A DNA stretch of 64,000 bases from the NCBI GenBank assembly GCA_964396445.1, contig CAYNFI010000003.1, positions 2,231 to 66,230 on the forward strand. The letters run 5' to 3'. The position numbers and the translations under genes are program-made. Positions 7,229 to 59,960 of this stretch are shown piece by piece; position 1 is the stretch's first letter, and every line of letters begins with the position of its first letter. Source of the stretch: an uncultured Candidatus Bathyarchaeia archaeon. GTDB taxonomy: Archaea; Thermoproteota; CALKCG01; B24; JAWCPE01. Under the pieces are notes generated by a model. The model searched no databases. It was not told where the DNA came from and was given only the letters and a program-made list of their open reading frames with translations.

Positions 7229-7281
7229 TAGCCTCCGAGGTTTAAACACTAAGTCAACCTATGGGTTAAAGGGATGTCAAG

Positions 7282-9021
7282 ATGAGGGGGAACCTTGTTT
7301 TTCCAATGCTTCTACTCTGCATCCTCCTCACCACCTCATTTCTACCAGTATCTCCCGTTACCTCACAGAACCTCTCAGGTCAGAGCCTATCCGTTGATGT
7401 CAGCCACACAGTTAAGGTCTACGATGGAGGCTGCGTCCTCGTTAATGAAACAGCTACCCTTATGAACCTCGGAGGGGACGCCTTGGAATCCTTCAAGGTC
7501 GGCTTCCCACAGAACTTCTCTGCGAAACTTTTCTACGCGGTTGCCTACGGAGCCTCAGGGGAAGACGAGCTTCAGATCGAGCGTGAAGCACTTGGAAAAG
7601 CAGGGATCGACGGTTTTAATATCCGGCTTTCAAAGCCTCTGCTACCCGGTGAAACGACTGTTATTCATTTATACCTAGTCTTCTCAAACATGTTATACTA
7701 TAACTCCACATATCAACAGTATGAGTTAAGCATGTTCCTTTACCCCATTTTCCCCTTCAACGTGTCTAGGGTCTCAGCTACGATTGTGGTTACAAAGCAG
7801 GGCACATTTGGGTTAGTTAGTTACCCAGAAGACTTTAATGTCACATATGGGAGTTATGAGACTTCTCTCAACCTTACGAAGGCTCCATTAGAAGCCTTCA
7901 CTGAACGCGTTGAAACCATAGCGTTCTCAGGGGATTTCCAAGCCGTTGCATTTGAGTATGCAAAACGGGTTGTAACAGTCTCCCCGGAAGGAAAGATCAT
8001 GGTTTCAGACACGTATCAAATACGTAACACGGTTTCCTTGACGCTGTCAACCGTAAAGCTTATGCTTGAAAAGGGAGCCCGTGACGTGGTTGTTGAAGAC
8101 TTCCTGGGGAAGCTTACGCAAACAGCCAGTATAGGGAATGAGACCCAGAATACGAATATCACCGTGACGCTCAGGAATGATTTAGAAAAGGGTATGCTGG
8201 CAACCTTCACCATCACATACACGCTTCCAACAAAGCCCTTCCTTAACTACACCCTCTTCAACCCCGATTACCAGCTTACGCTCAGGTTATTCATGGCGTT
8301 GAAGACCGCTGTCAAGAGGGTAACCGTGGAGGTTGTGCTTCCAGAAGGCGCCACCTTCATCGAAGCCACCCCCGTAAAGCTTTCATGGAACAGGACCGGG
8401 GAGCTTCAGCAAACTCTTTCATGGACTGGGGATAACATAACCCTTCTTCACGAATATGTCTTCACGATTAGGTACCGGTACATTCTCTTATGGGCAACCT
8501 TCAGACCTGCACTATACATATTCATAGCCGTCGCCATAGTTGCAACCATATACTTCGTTTCCAAGCGGGGGAAACCCGCTAAACCACTCCCATCAATCCC
8601 TACACCGTTGATGAAGCAGTTCATCGAAGCCTACGATGAGAAGGTGGCGTTAAGACTTGAGCTTGAAAGGCTTACGGATGAGTATCGAAGAGGCAGGGTT
8701 TCAAGAACGGATTTCAGGAGACGCAGTGAAGTCACAAACAGGCGGAGGAGGGACTTAGAGAGAACTATCAGTGAAGCCGGGCCTCAGCTGAGGAAGCTTG
8801 GGACAAGGTACGTTGACATGTTGAACCGCCTCGACGAGGCTGAGGCTGAAATTGAGGCTGTTGAGGCGAGCATCAGTGAGCTTATGGAGAGATACAGGGC
8901 CCGGAGGGTTTCAAGGGAGGTTTACGATAAGCTACTTAGTGACTACCGGAAACGCCTCGATAGAGCTAAGACCACGTTGGATAGAATCATCATCACGCTA
9001 CGCTCGGAAACCCGGGCATAG
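7282..9021 (+). CDS. Signal-peptide, single-pass membrane protein resembling ribophorin I (OST1), with a cytoplasmic Arg-rich coiled-coil tail
   Basis: N-terminal hydrophobic signal (MRGNLVFPMLLLCILLTTSFLP), a ~400-aa extracytoplasmic domain with 12 N-x-S/T sequons, and one TM (LYIFIAVAIVATIYFV). The segments TFTITYTLPTKPFL and TVEVVLPEGATFIEA resemble human RPN1 THYIVGYNLPSYEYL and TVKIILPEGAKNIEI, which I recalled from memory. Confidence 0.5.
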   Translation: MRGNLVFPMLLLCILLTTSFLPVSPVTSQNLSGQSLSVDVSHTVKVYDGGCVLVNETATLMNLGGDALESFKVGFPQNFSAKLFYAVAYGASGEDELQIEREALGKAGIDGFNIRLSKPLLPGETTVIHLYLVFSNMLYYNSTYQQYELSMFLYPIFPFNVSRVSATIVVTKQGTFGLVSYPEDFNVTYGSYETSLNLTKAPLEAFTERVETIAFSGDFQAVAFEYAKRVVTVSPEGKIMVSDTYQIRNTVSLTLSTVKLMLEKGARDVVVEDFLGKLTQTASIGNETQNTNITVTLRNDLEKGMLATFTITYTLPTKPFLNYTLFNPDYQLTLRLFMALKTAVKRVTVEVVLPEGATFIEATPVKLSWNRTGELQQTLSWTGDNITLLHEYVFTIRYRYILLWATFRPALYIFIAVAIVATIYFVSKRGKPAKPLPSIPTPLMKQFIEAYDEKVALRLELERLTDEYRRGRVSRTDFRRRSEVTNRRRRDLERTISEAGPQLRKLGTRYVDMLNRLDEAEAEIEAVEASISELMERYRARRVSREVYDKLLSDYRKRLDRAKTTLDRIIITLRSETRA

Positions 9022-9120
9022 CGGTATTTATTCGTCTCCTGAAAATTCTATATGGGAAGTAAGTGGGTTAAACCAGCTGGATTTATAAACGTCATAGGCA
9101 TGTGAGTTTAGGAATCAGCT

Positions 9121-10197
9121 ATGGCTGGTTGGGTTGAAACGCGGTTCAAGGAGAGGGTTAGGCCCTACGATGAAACGATGATGATTTCAATTGAGAGACG
9201 CGACGCCCTCGTATCCTACTGCCGCCCCTTCGCTAAGTATATAGACGACGCCTACTTCAACGGCCTAAACATCAGGCTTTACACGAACATTGAGCATGTA
9301 CACGATTTCTGGTGTGATAACTGGTATCAGTGGTCCCCCTTCGTGATACCCCACGGCGAGGTTTACGTGATCGATGACGGTGGGAGGATAAGCCTAGAAG
9401 ATTTATACGAACATCCGGTTTCCAAGCCTGAGATCAACGCAGGCGGCGTTTACAACCCCGAAACCAGAACGGCCATAATCCTAAACACGGATTATTATGG
9501 TCAGACAAAGTCTACCGCCCTCGGGTTGGCGGCTGACATCCTTGAAGACCAGTTCGGAATACTATCAGTTCACGGAGCCTCCGGTGCGGTGGATGAAAAA
9601 GGATTCCTCCTCATCGGCCCAACCAACGCGGGTAAAACCACCCACTCCTACGGCCCAGCGTTCTACCATCCAGATGGTGAATTCCACCAAGACGACTGGA
9701 TCTTCGTCCGATTCGTCGGGGGGAAAGCAGTGGGTGATGCCTCAGAGAAGAAGTTCTACATGCGGACGAACTCGATCAAGAACTTTCCCTGGCTTGAATC
9801 CCTCTATAGGCAGAATAAGCTGGAGAACGTCCGCCCAGATGACCCTAGAGAAAAGTATCTACCCGGTTATCCAAGGGTGATGGTTGACCCGAGGGTTATG
9901 ATGGCTCCTGAGAGGGTAGTCGACCAGATTCGCGTCAACAAAACCTTCCTACTTAAACGAGACCCGAGCGATAATATGGTGATAAAGTCCCTTGACCCTG
10001 ATGAAGCCGTGGAGGTTCTGAGGAAGGCTTCGGAGCGTTGGTATAATAATTACTTAATAAGCTTCGGGAAGCGGAAGGAAGAGCGGAGGGCTGAACTGTT
10101 CAGGAAGCTCTTTGAAAAAGCTGAGCCATGCCAAGTAAACATTACCGCTGACGTTGAGAAAGTAAGGCAGATGATTATAGAGGTCACTAAAAGCTAG
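9121..10197 (+). CDS. Short PEP-carboxykinase(ATP)-like / HprK-like P-loop protein of unknown function
   Basis: NTDYYGQTKSTALGL ... LLIGPTNAGKTTHSYG ... HQDDWIF parallels the ATP-PEPCK motifs (YAGEMKKG, GLSGTGKTT, GDDEHGW). At 358 aa the protein is much shorter than bona fide PckA. Confidence 0.45.
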   Translation: MAGWVETRFKERVRPYDETMMISIERRDALVSYCRPFAKYIDDAYFNGLNIRLYTNIEHVHDFWCDNWYQWSPFVIPHGEVYVIDDGGRISLEDLYEHPVSKPEINAGGVYNPETRTAIILNTDYYGQTKSTALGLAADILEDQFGILSVHGASGAVDEKGFLLIGPTNAGKTTHSYGPAFYHPDGEFHQDDWIFVRFVGGKAVGDASEKKFYMRTNSIKNFPWLESLYRQNKLENVRPDDPREKYLPGYPRVMVDPRVMMAPERVVDQIRVNKTFLLKRDPSDNMVIKSLDPDEAVEVLRKASERWYNNYLISFGKRKEERRAELFRKLFEKAEPCQVNITADVEKVRQMIIEVTKS

Positions 10198-56355: not shown

Positions 56356-57024
56356 TTAAGGAGTATTCATTACAATACCCTTCTTGAGGGCTATGCAACG
56401 AGGGATCTCCACCACCATAATGGCTTTTTCCACGACGACGCAGTCGCTGCCAGCCACAACATCTCCCTTCAATAGTGTAACCTTATCCGCTGTCTTCACC
56501 ATAATAGCTACGCCTTCCAAGCCGTGTTCGCGAAGCCCCTCCCGAATAACCTTTGCAAGTTCTCCGCTTCGCGGGATCGGCGCGTCGAGAAACCAGTATA
56601 CGCCATGGGGCTTTAGCTCTTTAAGCTCTGAAAGTATGAGGTTTAAGGCTTCAAAGGTTGTATCCGTAAAGCTGTACTTTCTTGAAACCATAGAGATATC
56701 CCTTACAACACCGTCGTCGGATAAGAATACAGGTAACCCCATAAGTATGATTTCAACCGTTATGAGGACGTTGTAGCCGTCTATGGATAATTTTTTTCCT
56801 CTCATAGCTTCGACTGAAACAACTTTTCTCCTATGCGCCTCACCAGTTTTTACATCGTAGACGGTACGGTATAGGAGAAGCCTTTCACCCTTATCTAAAC
56901 GGTATCTATCTCCCACAAACCTAACGGCTGGTTCTCTCCTATAGCCTCTAGATAGTAGGTATGCTAGGTCCCTAGAAGCCTCGACGACACTGTTCCCTAA
57001 GCCTTTAACAGCCTTCGATTCCAT
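56356..57024 (-). CDS. DUF434-type protein with a C-terminal NYN/YacP-like putative nuclease domain
   Basis: LSRGYRREPAVRFVGDRYRLDKGERLLLYR is DUF434-like, and KLSIDGYNVLITVE resembles the DGYN motif of YacP/Rae1-type NYN domains. Its ATG overlaps the leuS TAA (TAATG). Confidence 0.5.
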   Translation of the reverse strand: MESKAVKGLGNSVVEASRDLAYLLSRGYRREPAVRFVGDRYRLDKGERLLLYRTVYDVKTGEAHRRKVVSVEAMRGKKLSIDGYNVLITVEIILMGLPVFLSDDGVVRDISMVSRKYSFTDTTFEALNLILSELKELKPHGVYWFLDAPIPRSGELAKVIREGLREHGLEGVAIMVKTADKVTLLKGDVVAGSDCVVVEKAIMVVEIPRCIALKKGIVMNTP

Positions 57025-59960
57025 TACTCCACGTAAACCCCTGGTCTAAGGGGTTTAGCCAACCTAGCTCTATCCCTTGGGTCGTAGCGTTCAGTATCTT
57101 CCTCAGAGAAAACATGCACATCAGCTTTAAGTTCTTGTTGGAAGAAAACCAGCATTTCCCTTAAGGCTTCAACCTCGTCTAGAACCCCTACGGCTAACCA
57201 TCTTTTCAAGGTTTCCTTTGAAGCATGACTTAACTCCTTAAAAACTCCTTCAGCGAACCCCGCAGTGAGCCGCCCTTTTGCCCTAAGCTCAGGGTCCTCC
57301 ATCAACATCTTCATCAACCCACCTACCGTGACTATACCTGCGTCGACGGCTTGAAGCGTTTTCAAGAAGACCTTCCACTTCCACGGCGCGGAAAAGTAGT
57401 AACAGATCTGCTTGGGAGCAATCCCGGTAGCTCTAAGGATGTTGAACGTATCCTCAAGTAAGGTTTTGGCTAGGTTCTCCACCTCTTCCGCTTTCAAATC
57501 GATCTTCGAAGGGTTGGATACGGGCCATGAGGTTTCCGCGATGAAACCTTCTCCACCCATAGTATGCCAAAGCTCCTCACAGAGATGCGGCGTAAACGGA
57601 GCTAGCATACGGACTCTTGCATCTAAGACCTGTCTAAGAACGTTGGTTGTAGCCTCCATTCGCATAGGTAAATCCACCTCACTTGAGGTGCGTCGGGTAT
57701 ACCATTGGATGTCCCGGTCTAACTCATACATGATAACTTGGATAGCCCTACGGACATCAAGTTCATCCATAGCTTCCGTAACTTCATTGACGTAAGTGTT
57801 TAATCGGCTTACCATCCATCGGTCTATGTTTCTTGTTAGGTTAAACTCTTCGATTCCCTTCGACTTTACACAGAGGTCTAAAGCGTGATTTCGGAAACGT
57901 TCAAGCCATTCACCCACAGCCTTAGCTAAACCCGGGCTGAAGTCAGCGTCTTGAAGAAGACCGGCTGTGGAAACAACAGCGACCCTTAATGGGTCGGCGG
58001 CGTAGTTTTTTATAGCTTCCCTGAGCGGGATGATGTTGCCTAAACTTTTCGACATCTTCTGTCCTTCCATCAAGACGCTTCCGTTGACGACGATTTGGCG
58101 GGGCCACTGAGCGCGTGGGAAGATGGCGAGGTGGTTGAATATGAAGAACGTTAAGTGGTTGCTTACCAAATCTCTTCCCGAGTGACGGCTGTCAACGGGG
58201 TAGAAGTAAAGGAACTCTTCACGTATCTGTTTCAGCGTGTTAGAGCTTAGCCCAGTAGTATCTGACAGCTGGTCAGGTTCTCCGAAGCCGAGGAGTACGT
58301 AGTCGAAGAAGGCGTCTGTTAGCTGGCTTGCCTGAAGCCTAAGTTGGTTAACGTGCTTTGAGAGGATGTAGTAGGCCATATATATGGTGCTATCCGATAA
58401 GGATTCGATGATCCATTCCTGGTCCCATGGAAGCCTCGTTCCTAGTCCCGATTTTCTAGCACAGGCTTTTGCACGAAGCCAGTCAACAACGTTCTCAAAC
58501 TCTTGTATTAATTCCTTAGGAAGAACCTCCATCTCCTTAAGCCATTCATGGACTAACCTTTTCCACTCGGGGTTACCGTAATCTATGAACCATTGATCCT
58601 CAAAGATCTTTACAACGCACTCGGCTCCACAGCGGCAGAAAATAGGGCGGTTGATAAGCTCATACATGACACTTGCCCTTCCAGCCTGTATCAGGTCTTT
58701 CTTAACGGCTTCCTTTGCCTCAGTCACAGAAAGCCCAACGTATTTCCCCGTGTTCTCCCTCATCAAACCCCGGCTAAACTCCATGTTATAAACATCCTTT
58801 GTTACATCCTCGAGCCTACGGTCGCGTTGGCTTTCAATCCCTAAACGTTGAACAGCCTCAACTGTGAGGAATTCAGAGCCTTCAGGTATTTTTATAACGG
58901 ATATGGGTTTAACCTCTTCAAGAAGACCTTGGCTTAAGCCATACTCCTTCAGTCTACTCGGCTCCTTCACTAAGCTCTCTAATCCCACGTAGTCATAAGG
59001 CGCGTGAGCTGGGACAGACATGACGACGCCTGTGGCGTTCCTAGGGTCTACGAACTCGGCTGGAAGGATTGGAACGTAACGGTTCGTAACAGGGTTTCTA
59101 ACCTGCTTTCCAAGAAGTGTTCTGCCGCGGATAAAGGATCTAACGTTAACAACCTTATTCTGAAGGCGGAGCTTTTCTATGCATTCCCTGCTTATAATCC
59201 ACCGCTGTCCATCGACATCTGCTTCAACGTACTCAGCTTCAGGGTTTAACCAAATATTTGTGACTCCGAAAACGGTTTCAGGCCTCAATGTTGCCGTTGG
59301 CAGTATGGCCTCAGGAGATTCGAAGAATATAACGGTGAACTCCTCTACCTCAGGTTCCATGTCACCACGGGTATCATGCTGCCCAACAGGGTTTCCACAG
59401 CTAGGGCACCATCCTACTGGGTGGCTTCCCTTCGTTATGTACCCTCTTTCACGCAACTTGTGAAACTGCCACTCGATGAAACGGTTGTAGCATGGGTCAA
59501 TAGTAGTGAACTCCCTTCTCCAGTCTATGGAGTAACCCATCTCCTTCATACCCATCTTGATCTCTTCATGAAAGTATTGAGCGATCTTAAGCGGTTCTTT
59601 AAACCCCTCTAAGACATCGAGAGGAACCTTACAGATCCGTGTAAAGGTATCAATGATGTCCTCGTCGCCAGCTTCTAAACGCTTGGACATGGCGAGGACA
59701 GGAGTGCCTGTGTAATGGAAGGCCATGGGGAAAAGGGTTTGGTAACCCCGCATCCTCATGTAACGGGCGTGAATATCCGTTAGAGCATAGGTTCTTCCAT
59801 GTCCAATATGCTGTGGAAGGTTGGGATAGGGATATGCGACTGTGATAAAGAATTTAGGCTTGAGTGAAATGGGGTCGACTTCGAAAAGCTTCGCCCTCTC
59901 CCATTCACGCTGCCACTTCCTCTCGACTTCTACGAGGTTTGCGGGCATAGTTATACCCAT
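57024..59960 (-). CDS. leuS: Leucyl-tRNA synthetase (archaeal type)
   Basis: HIGH-type motif PQHIGHGRTY and KMSKS motif QKMSKSLGN, with an editing-domain insertion. The 978-aa size fits. Confidence 0.95.
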   Translation of the reverse strand: MGITMPANLVEVERKWQREWERAKLFEVDPISLKPKFFITVAYPYPNLPQHIGHGRTYALTDIHARYMRMRGYQTLFPMAFHYTGTPVLAMSKRLEAGDEDIIDTFTRICKVPLDVLEGFKEPLKIAQYFHEEIKMGMKEMGYSIDWRREFTTIDPCYNRFIEWQFHKLRERGYITKGSHPVGWCPSCGNPVGQHDTRGDMEPEVEEFTVIFFESPEAILPTATLRPETVFGVTNIWLNPEAEYVEADVDGQRWIISRECIEKLRLQNKVVNVRSFIRGRTLLGKQVRNPVTNRYVPILPAEFVDPRNATGVVMSVPAHAPYDYVGLESLVKEPSRLKEYGLSQGLLEEVKPISVIKIPEGSEFLTVEAVQRLGIESQRDRRLEDVTKDVYNMEFSRGLMRENTGKYVGLSVTEAKEAVKKDLIQAGRASVMYELINRPIFCRCGAECVVKIFEDQWFIDYGNPEWKRLVHEWLKEMEVLPKELIQEFENVVDWLRAKACARKSGLGTRLPWDQEWIIESLSDSTIYMAYYILSKHVNQLRLQASQLTDAFFDYVLLGFGEPDQLSDTTGLSSNTLKQIREEFLYFYPVDSRHSGRDLVSNHLTFFIFNHLAIFPRAQWPRQIVVNGSVLMEGQKMSKSLGNIIPLREAIKNYAADPLRVAVVSTAGLLQDADFSPGLAKAVGEWLERFRNHALDLCVKSKGIEEFNLTRNIDRWMVSRLNTYVNEVTEAMDELDVRRAIQVIMYELDRDIQWYTRRTSSEVDLPMRMEATTNVLRQVLDARVRMLAPFTPHLCEELWHTMGGEGFIAETSWPVSNPSKIDLKAEEVENLAKTLLEDTFNILRATGIAPKQICYYFSAPWKWKVFLKTLQAVDAGIVTVGGLMKMLMEDPELRAKGRLTAGFAEGVFKELSHASKETLKRWLAVGVLDEVEALREMLVFFQQELKADVHVFSEEDTERYDPRDRARLAKPLRPGVYVE

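Follow-up and report, generated by a model that had tools for sequence, protein, structure and literature searches.

A full-length ribophorin I (OST1) family member in a Bathyarchaeia-type archaeon

Here we show that a 64,000-nucleotide stretch of archaeal DNA (the window) encodes, at positions 7282..9021 on the + strand, a genuine full-length archaeal member of the ribophorin I / OST1 family. In eukaryotes, ribophorin I is an accessory subunit by which the enzyme that glycosylates proteins is anchored to the ribosome. We consider it highly probable that the protein is a bona fide ribophorin I / OST1 of a Bathyarchaeia-type archaeon, one that would act as a non-catalytic partner of AglB and dock ribosomes. 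By linking profile searches, structure prediction and genome surveys, we describe its architecture, its candidate partners, and its distribution in the host phylum.

Gene and family membership

The gene is a complete open frame of 579 codons plus stop in the ORF list of the window, assigned on the basis of Pfam (PF04597), a family profile and Foldseek. A putative TATA-like box (TTTAAA, 7241..7246, + strand), picked out by eye and regarded as a candidate only, lies 36-41 nt 5' of the ATG, inside the 53-nt gap that follows a gene for an FTR-like protein. Other neighbouring genes encode an isocitrate/isopropylmalate dehydrogenase (Iso_dh), a peroxiredoxin (AhpC), a 358-aa P-loop protein, a cupin, and an archaeal PEP carboxylase; none of the neighbours is related to glycosylation, and no conserved neighbourhood of the OST1 gene was found across the 12 related loci compared. 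Intact and nearly identical copies of the gene are carried by 19 metagenome contigs, and the 3 variable codons found across six metagenome copies are too few to inform on selection.

The Pfam Ribophorin_I model (PF04597) matched the 579-aa protein with an E-value of 2.4e-17 (63.6 bits against a gathering cut-off of 25) in two stretches, the better of which pairs aa 254-426 with profile positions 256-435 of 437, and the cut-off was also passed in a six-frame search of the genome. No other Pfam family scored on the ectodomain in the Pfam search, and NCBIfam returned nothing beyond weak coiled-coil noise on the tail. A single-sequence phmmer search of PDB chains did not reach human RPN1; it matched aa 437-575 to chain 8whn_A, a 'Ribophorin 1 superfamily protein' (E 1.9e-8). 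When 1.84 billion cluster representatives were searched exhaustively with phmmer, 496 relatives were recovered, 153 of them at E <= 1e-30. Almost all of the best 150 of the 496 are near full length, the best non-self match is 39% identical, and precomputed Pfam annotation flags archaeal relatives as members of this family.

A family profile (A2) was built from 68 archaeal relatives drawn from these phmmer matches. It matched human RPN1 (6s7o_E) with an E-value of 9.6e-35 in two stretches that together span residues 8-604, tail included, A2 positions 11-248 aligning with human residues 8-255. Matches were likewise obtained to yeast Ost1 (6c26_1; E 6.4e-18) and to the OST1 tail of the Asgard archaeon MK-D1 (8WHN, chain 8whn_A; E 2.3e-24). 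When the last 332 residues of human RPN1, taken from the profile alignment, were compared directly with the query by BLASTP, residues 254-570 of the query aligned with 21% identity (E 6e-8), in colinear fashion across the transmembrane (TM) helix and the tail. This alignment pairs TFTITYTLPTKPFL with THYIVGYNLPSYEYL, YQLTLRLF with YALKMRF, and TVEVVLPEGATFIEA with TVKIILPEGAKNIEI, and so reproduces, in order, the three local matches to human RPN1 that an initial annotation of this DNA had proposed. The best-conserved motifs, Y313 and P354-x-G356 (LPEGA), with nearly invariant columns in the family alignment, fall in the membrane-proximal domain, and the motifs around Y313 and LPEGA are conserved between this OST1 and human RPN1.

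Predicted architecture and the cytoplasmic tail

An AlphaFold model computed with the family alignment as input (pLDDT 91.5) comprises an N-terminal helix (6-20), strands 36-399 arranged in two sandwich domains, a TM helix (403-428), and four tail helices (441-469, 475-504, 508-539, and 545-578). Only two hydrophobic segments are present, one N-terminal and signal-like (about aa 3-28) and one TM segment; in the hydropathy profile the signal peak lies at windows 3-10, and the TM windows start at aa 400-411. Based on hydropathy and the predicted helix 6-20, aa 1-28 form a signal peptide-like N-terminus (7282..7365, + strand; core LVFPMLLLCILLTTSFL) with predicted cleavage, and the linker 24-32 after the signal helix is modelled with low confidence. 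The strands and the A2 alignment delimit a first extracytoplasmic beta-sandwich domain (~aa 29-235; 7366..7986, + strand) with 7 sequons, whose strands 36-233 have pLDDT values mostly above 90. The second, membrane-proximal beta-sandwich domain (~aa 236-402; 7987..8487, + strand), delimited by Pfam, BLASTP, and conserved columns, holds 5 sequons together with Y313 and LPEGA. It is followed by the single TM helix (aa 403-428; 8488..8565, + strand), placed by AlphaFold and hydropathy.

When the model was compared with the PDB using Foldseek, the best eight matches were all RPN1/Ost1 chains (E 1.6e-32 to 1.9e-20), headed by 8b6l_O (E 1.6e-32 over 586 columns). The first fold outside RPN1/Ost1 was that of integrins (E 1.6e-8; the eight RPN1/Ost1 matches are reported as 14 orders of magnitude better). 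The ribophorin I-like identity proposed in the initial annotation is thus borne out by Pfam, by A2, and by the eight leading Foldseek matches; both the HMM and the structure searches led to RPN1/Ost1, and the best match was to no S-layer or DUF family.

Human RPN1, subunit 1 of OST-A and OST-B (6S7O chain E, 8B6L chain O, 8PN9 chain E), has the same domain order, and the predicted fold agrees with it throughout: in both proteins a signal peptide is followed by two beta-sandwiches (luminal in RPN1), a single TM helix, and helices that form a tail in the cytosol. The archaeal protein differs in sequence (~16-21% identity) and in its 12 sequons, and would sit in the cytoplasmic membrane, whereas human RPN1 resides in the ER. 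Yeast Ost1p (6EZN chain A, 6C26 chain 1) is alike in the fold of ectodomain and TM helix (Foldseek E ~1e-21, TMt 0.6), but it is without the cytosolic bundle that this archaeal OST1 possesses.

The predicted topology is type I: the protein starts with a signal peptide and its C-terminus lies in the cytosol. Because the tail is basic and the ectodomain acidic (pI 5.2), the positive-inside rule places the tail in the cytoplasm; its composition (aa 429-579, the C-terminal 151 residues) includes 19.6% R and 11.9% E, with 37 K+R vs 27 D+E and a pI of 10.2. Hydropathy, AlphaFold, and charge therefore agree with the arrangement of signal peptide, ectodomain, single TM helix, and cytoplasmic tail that had been proposed, while refining it in two respects. 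The TM helix is indeed single, but it had been placed at residues 411-436, about 8 residues off the AlphaFold position, and the cytoplasmic, Arg/Glu-rich tail had been read as a coiled coil, whereas the model gives four short-turn helices of a bundle-like kind. The count of 12 N-x-S/T sequons was confirmed, all of them in the ectodomain (aa 30-385). Shuffled ectodomains contained 3.1 +/- 1.6 sequons, and 0 of 2000 shuffles reached 12; OST1 is itself probably N-glycosylated.

The basic cytoplasmic helical domain (aa 441-578; 8602..9015, + strand) was delimited by phmmer and A2 matches to 8whn_A and by AlphaFold. Its predicted four helices of ~30 residues, joined by short turns, are consistent with a helical bundle rather than a long coiled coil. 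The A2 profile also aligns the tail with human RPN1 residues 468-604, and such alignments show the tail to be a homologue of the four-helix bundle with which MK-D1 OST1 and human RPN1 bind ribosomes. In the crystal structure 8WHN, the cytosolic domain of the Asgard MK-D1 OST1 folds as a four-helix bundle whose topology is that of its human RPN1 counterpart, and the MK-D1 tail pulls down ribosomes (PMC11417166). By extrapolation from this homologue (phmmer E 1.9e-8 over the 140-residue tail), the tail described here may likewise bind ribosomes. The OST1 of Ca. Prometheoarchaeum syntrophicum MK-D1 (WP_147663064.1, 8WHN) is likewise archaeal, with a plasma-membrane setting and a homologous tail, but it comes from an Asgard archaeon rather than the TACK-type phylum considered here, and the comparison concerns the MK-D1 tail only; TRAP subunits have been reported for MK-D1.

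Candidate partners and proposed role

The initial annotation had suggested looking for AglB/STT3 and OST3/6-like genes, and both kinds of candidate were found. The genome encodes one AglB/STT3 of 717 aa (STT3 domain E 1.5e-42) in which the WWDYG motif is present; its gene lies on contig C1, and the OST1 gene on a separate contig of the same genome bin. Adjoining aglB, divergently transcribed and ~240 bp away, is a gene for a 172-aa membrane protein. On its own, this protein scored 19.5 bits against Pfam OST3_OST6 (PF04756), under the cut-off of 27; a 50%-identical homologue has a precomputed PF04756 match. A 15-sequence profile of the protein matched human OSTC/DC2 with an E-value of 8.4e-9, covering 114 of 125 positions; the match to the TM part of MAGT1 had an E-value of 8e-4. 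Going by these profile matches, the aglB neighbour is a relative of human OSTC/DC2 (OST3/6 membrane module). Its structural model contains three TM helices (pLDDT 64.7), and in a Foldseek search with this low-confidence model OSTC chains ranked 1 and 3, at a non-significant E-value of 1.8.

All 17 genomes of the host class carry the OSTC-like gene, as do 10 of the 24 genomes sampled elsewhere in the phylum, and it adjoins aglB in two of the four families. Among the same 24 genomes, 10 have both OST1 and the OSTC-like gene, 3 have OST1 alone, none has the OSTC-like gene alone, and 11 have neither (Fisher p 1.5e-4, uncorrected for shared ancestry). The accessory-subunit search took in OST48 and ribophorin II. 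OST48 and RPN2, partners of human RPN1, gave no match above cut-off in the 17 class genomes, the OST48 search being silent in the controls too and hence without a working control.

On the reading we favour, OST1 would lie in the cytoplasmic membrane, its sequon-loaded ectodomain outside and beside the catalytic site, and would join the single AglB/STT3 of the genome as a non-catalytic subunit. The OSTC/DC2-like three-helix protein encoded beside aglB would probably enter the same complex. Mammalian OSTC/DC2 contacts Sec61. It is through DC2/OSTC that the mammalian STT3A complex makes contact with the translocon (PMC5674889). The basic tail of the archaeal OST1 would hold translating ribosomes at the SecYEG/AglB site, such that nascent secreted proteins could be N-glycosylated while emerging, coupling glycosylation to translocation. 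That AglB/STT3, an RPN1-type OST1, and a thioredoxin-less OSTC/DC2-like protein make up a three-subunit, OST-A-like enzyme in the host lineage and much of the phylum is a more tentative proposal, which may well turn out otherwise.

A true OST1 homologue might instead work apart from AglB, either as a ribosome receptor or holdase at SecYEG or as a surface glycoprotein that keeps the ancestral fold. This would be in keeping with a gene that is unlinked to aglB and has no conserved neighbourhood, with three genomes of the phylum in which OST1 occurs without a detectable OSTC-like gene, and with a rapidly diverging ectodomain. Within the same family OST1 is 36% identical, and in a same-family genome AglB is 59% and the OSTC-like protein 57% identical. 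The fast divergence of OST1 (36% within the family vs 84% for EF-2) fits a peripheral subunit that is not tightly constrained. We regard AglB-independent action as unlikely, given that all structurally characterised members of the family are OST subunits, that OST1 co-occurs strongly with the AglB-adjacent OSTC-like gene, and that the best-conserved parts are the TM helix and the membrane-proximal domain, which form the complex contacts in eukaryotes. A role as an AglB partner remains the preferred reading of the protein.

Host lineage and distribution of the family

The host is a Bathyarchaeia-type TACK archaeon and not an Asgard archaeon. The genome bin comprises 2.08 Mb in 125 contigs and is 89% complete (sampled genomes of the phylum measure 0.8-2.4 Mb). 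The host class contains 17 species of one order in the genome collection and carries the NCBI label Bathyarchaeia. The nearest relatives of the LeuRS encoded in the window come from a genome of the same order and from named Bathyarchaeia; LeuRS was rejected as a lineage marker, as two deeply split types exist within the order (same-family sequences 43-44% identical, those of named Bathyarchaeia 51-54%). Since LeuRS is useless as a species marker, EF-2, encoded on another contig of the bin, was used. The best named matches of EF-2 (84% and 78% identity) are both labelled 'Candidatus Bathyarchaeia archaeon', and every archaeal name among its best 120 matches is Bathyarchaeia or Bathyarchaeota. 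Sites for universal or MCG 16S rRNA primers were absent throughout the genome bin.

With the Pfam Ribophorin_I model, which is biased to eukaryotes, 69 of the 401 genomes sampled from the phylum (40 of 161 genera) gave a family member. By the A2 profile, 16 of the 17 host-class genomes have a strong homologue of full length, and a strong homologue also occurs in 13 of the 24 genomes sampled from elsewhere in the phylum. The one class genome outside these 16 is 90% complete. Three of those 13 genomes have tail-less frames of 416-433 aa, as in yeast. The nearest named homologue, MBS7610079.1, is 36% identical and comes from a Bathyarchaeota MAG. The same MAG encodes MBS7609462.1, which among named sequences is closest to the OSTC-like protein, and each of the two is entered as a 'hypothetical protein'. 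In a pattern scan, the seven species-representative genomes with the closest OST1 homologues were all Bathyarchaeia or Bathyarchaeota (25-28% identity). Identity to the query is 36% within its family, 33-35% within its order, and 25-28% elsewhere in the phylum and in named Bathyarchaeia, a drop with taxonomic distance that argues for vertical descent combined with fast divergence.

Ribophorin I commonly appears among the eukaryotic signature proteins of Asgard archaea (PMC10307638; PMC8813620), which speaks for a contig of Asgard DNA wrongly binned with a TACK genome, or for a recent transfer from an Asgard archaeon. The presence of homologues in nearly the whole class, with identity falling as taxonomic distance grows, is hard to reconcile with either; the nearest named OST1 and OSTC-like homologues belong to Bathyarchaeota MAGs, and the EF-2 and LeuRS matches point to Bathyarchaeia. 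An Asgard origin of the contig or gene is largely refuted by the spread of the family, the identity gradient, and EF-2, and we consider it very improbable. Least probable of all, to the point of being negligible, is a chance resemblance to ribophorin I by some unrelated beta-sandwich protein of the archaeal surface or associated with the S-layer (e.g. of DUF2207 type): beta-sandwich ectodomains are common, and a second, DUF2207-like protein of the genome matches the N-domain of the family profile only, but the significant matches here are colinear over all four modules, TM helix and tail included, the ectodomain has no match to any other Pfam family, and the Pfam, A2, and Foldseek results refute this explanation.

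The initial annotation had held that a homologue would bear either on the lineage of the contig or on the distribution of OST accessory subunits. Because the family is widespread in the phylum, the finding bears on the latter and not on lineage. OST1 and OST3/6 have been stated to occur in 'TACK and Asgard archaea' (PMC11417166), and other TACK ribophorin I homologues (PMC11417166; 'hypothetical protein' at NCBI, e.g. MBS7610079.1) are of the same family and architecture; the OST1 described here is an orthologue from a small, sparsely sampled class (17 species). With the presence of the family in TACK archaea already stated (PMC11417166), the gain here is a correct annotation and one data point rather than a new principle.

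A full-length OST1, complete with the tail that would dock ribosomes, is nearly universal in this Bathyarchaeia-type class, and the family occurs in about half of the genomes sampled from the rest of the phylum. This supports the view, to which PMC11417166 gives a single sentence, that accessory subunits of the OST1 and OST3/6 types predate Asgard archaea, and such subunits could be studied in TACK lineages. If the three-subunit enzyme proposed above is real, translocon-coupled, co-translational N-glycosylation would be older than the split between Asgard and TACK archaea, and the DC2-like form would represent the ancestral state of the OST3/6 module.

Relatives and neighbour of the ribophorin I homologue

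A second protein encoded in the same genome resembles ribophorin I in the N-domain alone: a 534-aa membrane protein (contig C36, 14022-15626, minus strand; positions 1023-2627 of L044, the locus cut from that contig), whose N-terminal domain of approximately 200 aa matches the corresponding part of the family profile built from 68 archaeal relatives (E 1.6e-12). DUF2207 matched this N-terminal domain weakly and under the cut-off (21.5 bits). The C-terminal end of the protein is an unusual Cys-Ala repeat, CVCACANCACACACVGCACACAGGG.

Among homologues of ribophorin I itself, those of some members of the host phylum (genomes G015, G023, and G031; frames of 416-433 aa) end right behind the TM helix and have no cytosolic tail. 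The difference between these tail-less homologues and their tailed relatives parallels that between yeast Ost1 and mammalian RPN1.

Immediately downstream of the ribophorin gene lies a 358-aa gene (window 9121-10197, plus strand), which accompanies it in every metagenome copy of the host species and is not beside it in relatives. Its product has no Pfam family, contains a Walker-A-like motif (GPTNAGKTT), and gives a weak match to PEPCK_ATP (E 0.0026).

An OSTC/DC2-like protein and aglB

A 172-aa protein with three TM helices, related to OSTC/DC2 by profile match, is encoded on contig C1 of the same genome (80364-80882, minus strand; 559-1077 of locus L009), divergently transcribed from the single-copy aglB/STT3 gene (C1 81126-83279, plus strand; L009 1321-3474). 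The profile of this protein matched human OSTC/DC2 with an E-value of 8.4e-9. The protein was found in all 17 genomes of the host class, and two of the four families have its gene next to aglB.

Leucyl-tRNA synthetase and EF-2

Leucyl-tRNA synthetase (LeuRS; window 57024-59960, minus strand) occurs within the host order as two deeply separated types. The window LeuRS shares just 43-44% identity with those of same-family genomes, versus 51-56% with those of one same-order genome and named Bathyarchaeia, an identity pattern across the order which suggests that LeuRS was replaced or transferred.

The EF-2 gene (contig C36, about 7698-9920, plus strand; locus L075, 399-2621) contains an in-frame TAG: the frame reads GTG-SKRKTTADVLKILRDKNQVRKM-stop, followed in the same frame by AYRSLCPKH-IGIIAHVDHGKTT. 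EF-2 proteins of the closest relatives (74-84% identity) are all annotated as 695 aa, a frame that leaves out the P-loop, whereas those of other Bathyarchaeia span 728-730 aa. A hairpin is predicted across the insert region (-24 kcal/mol, z -2.6, one 3-nt bulge); the minimum-energy fold of this region contains no canonical bulge-helix-bulge. The insert (L075 462-494, approximate boundaries) is a candidate mini-intron of about 33 nt inside an essential gene.
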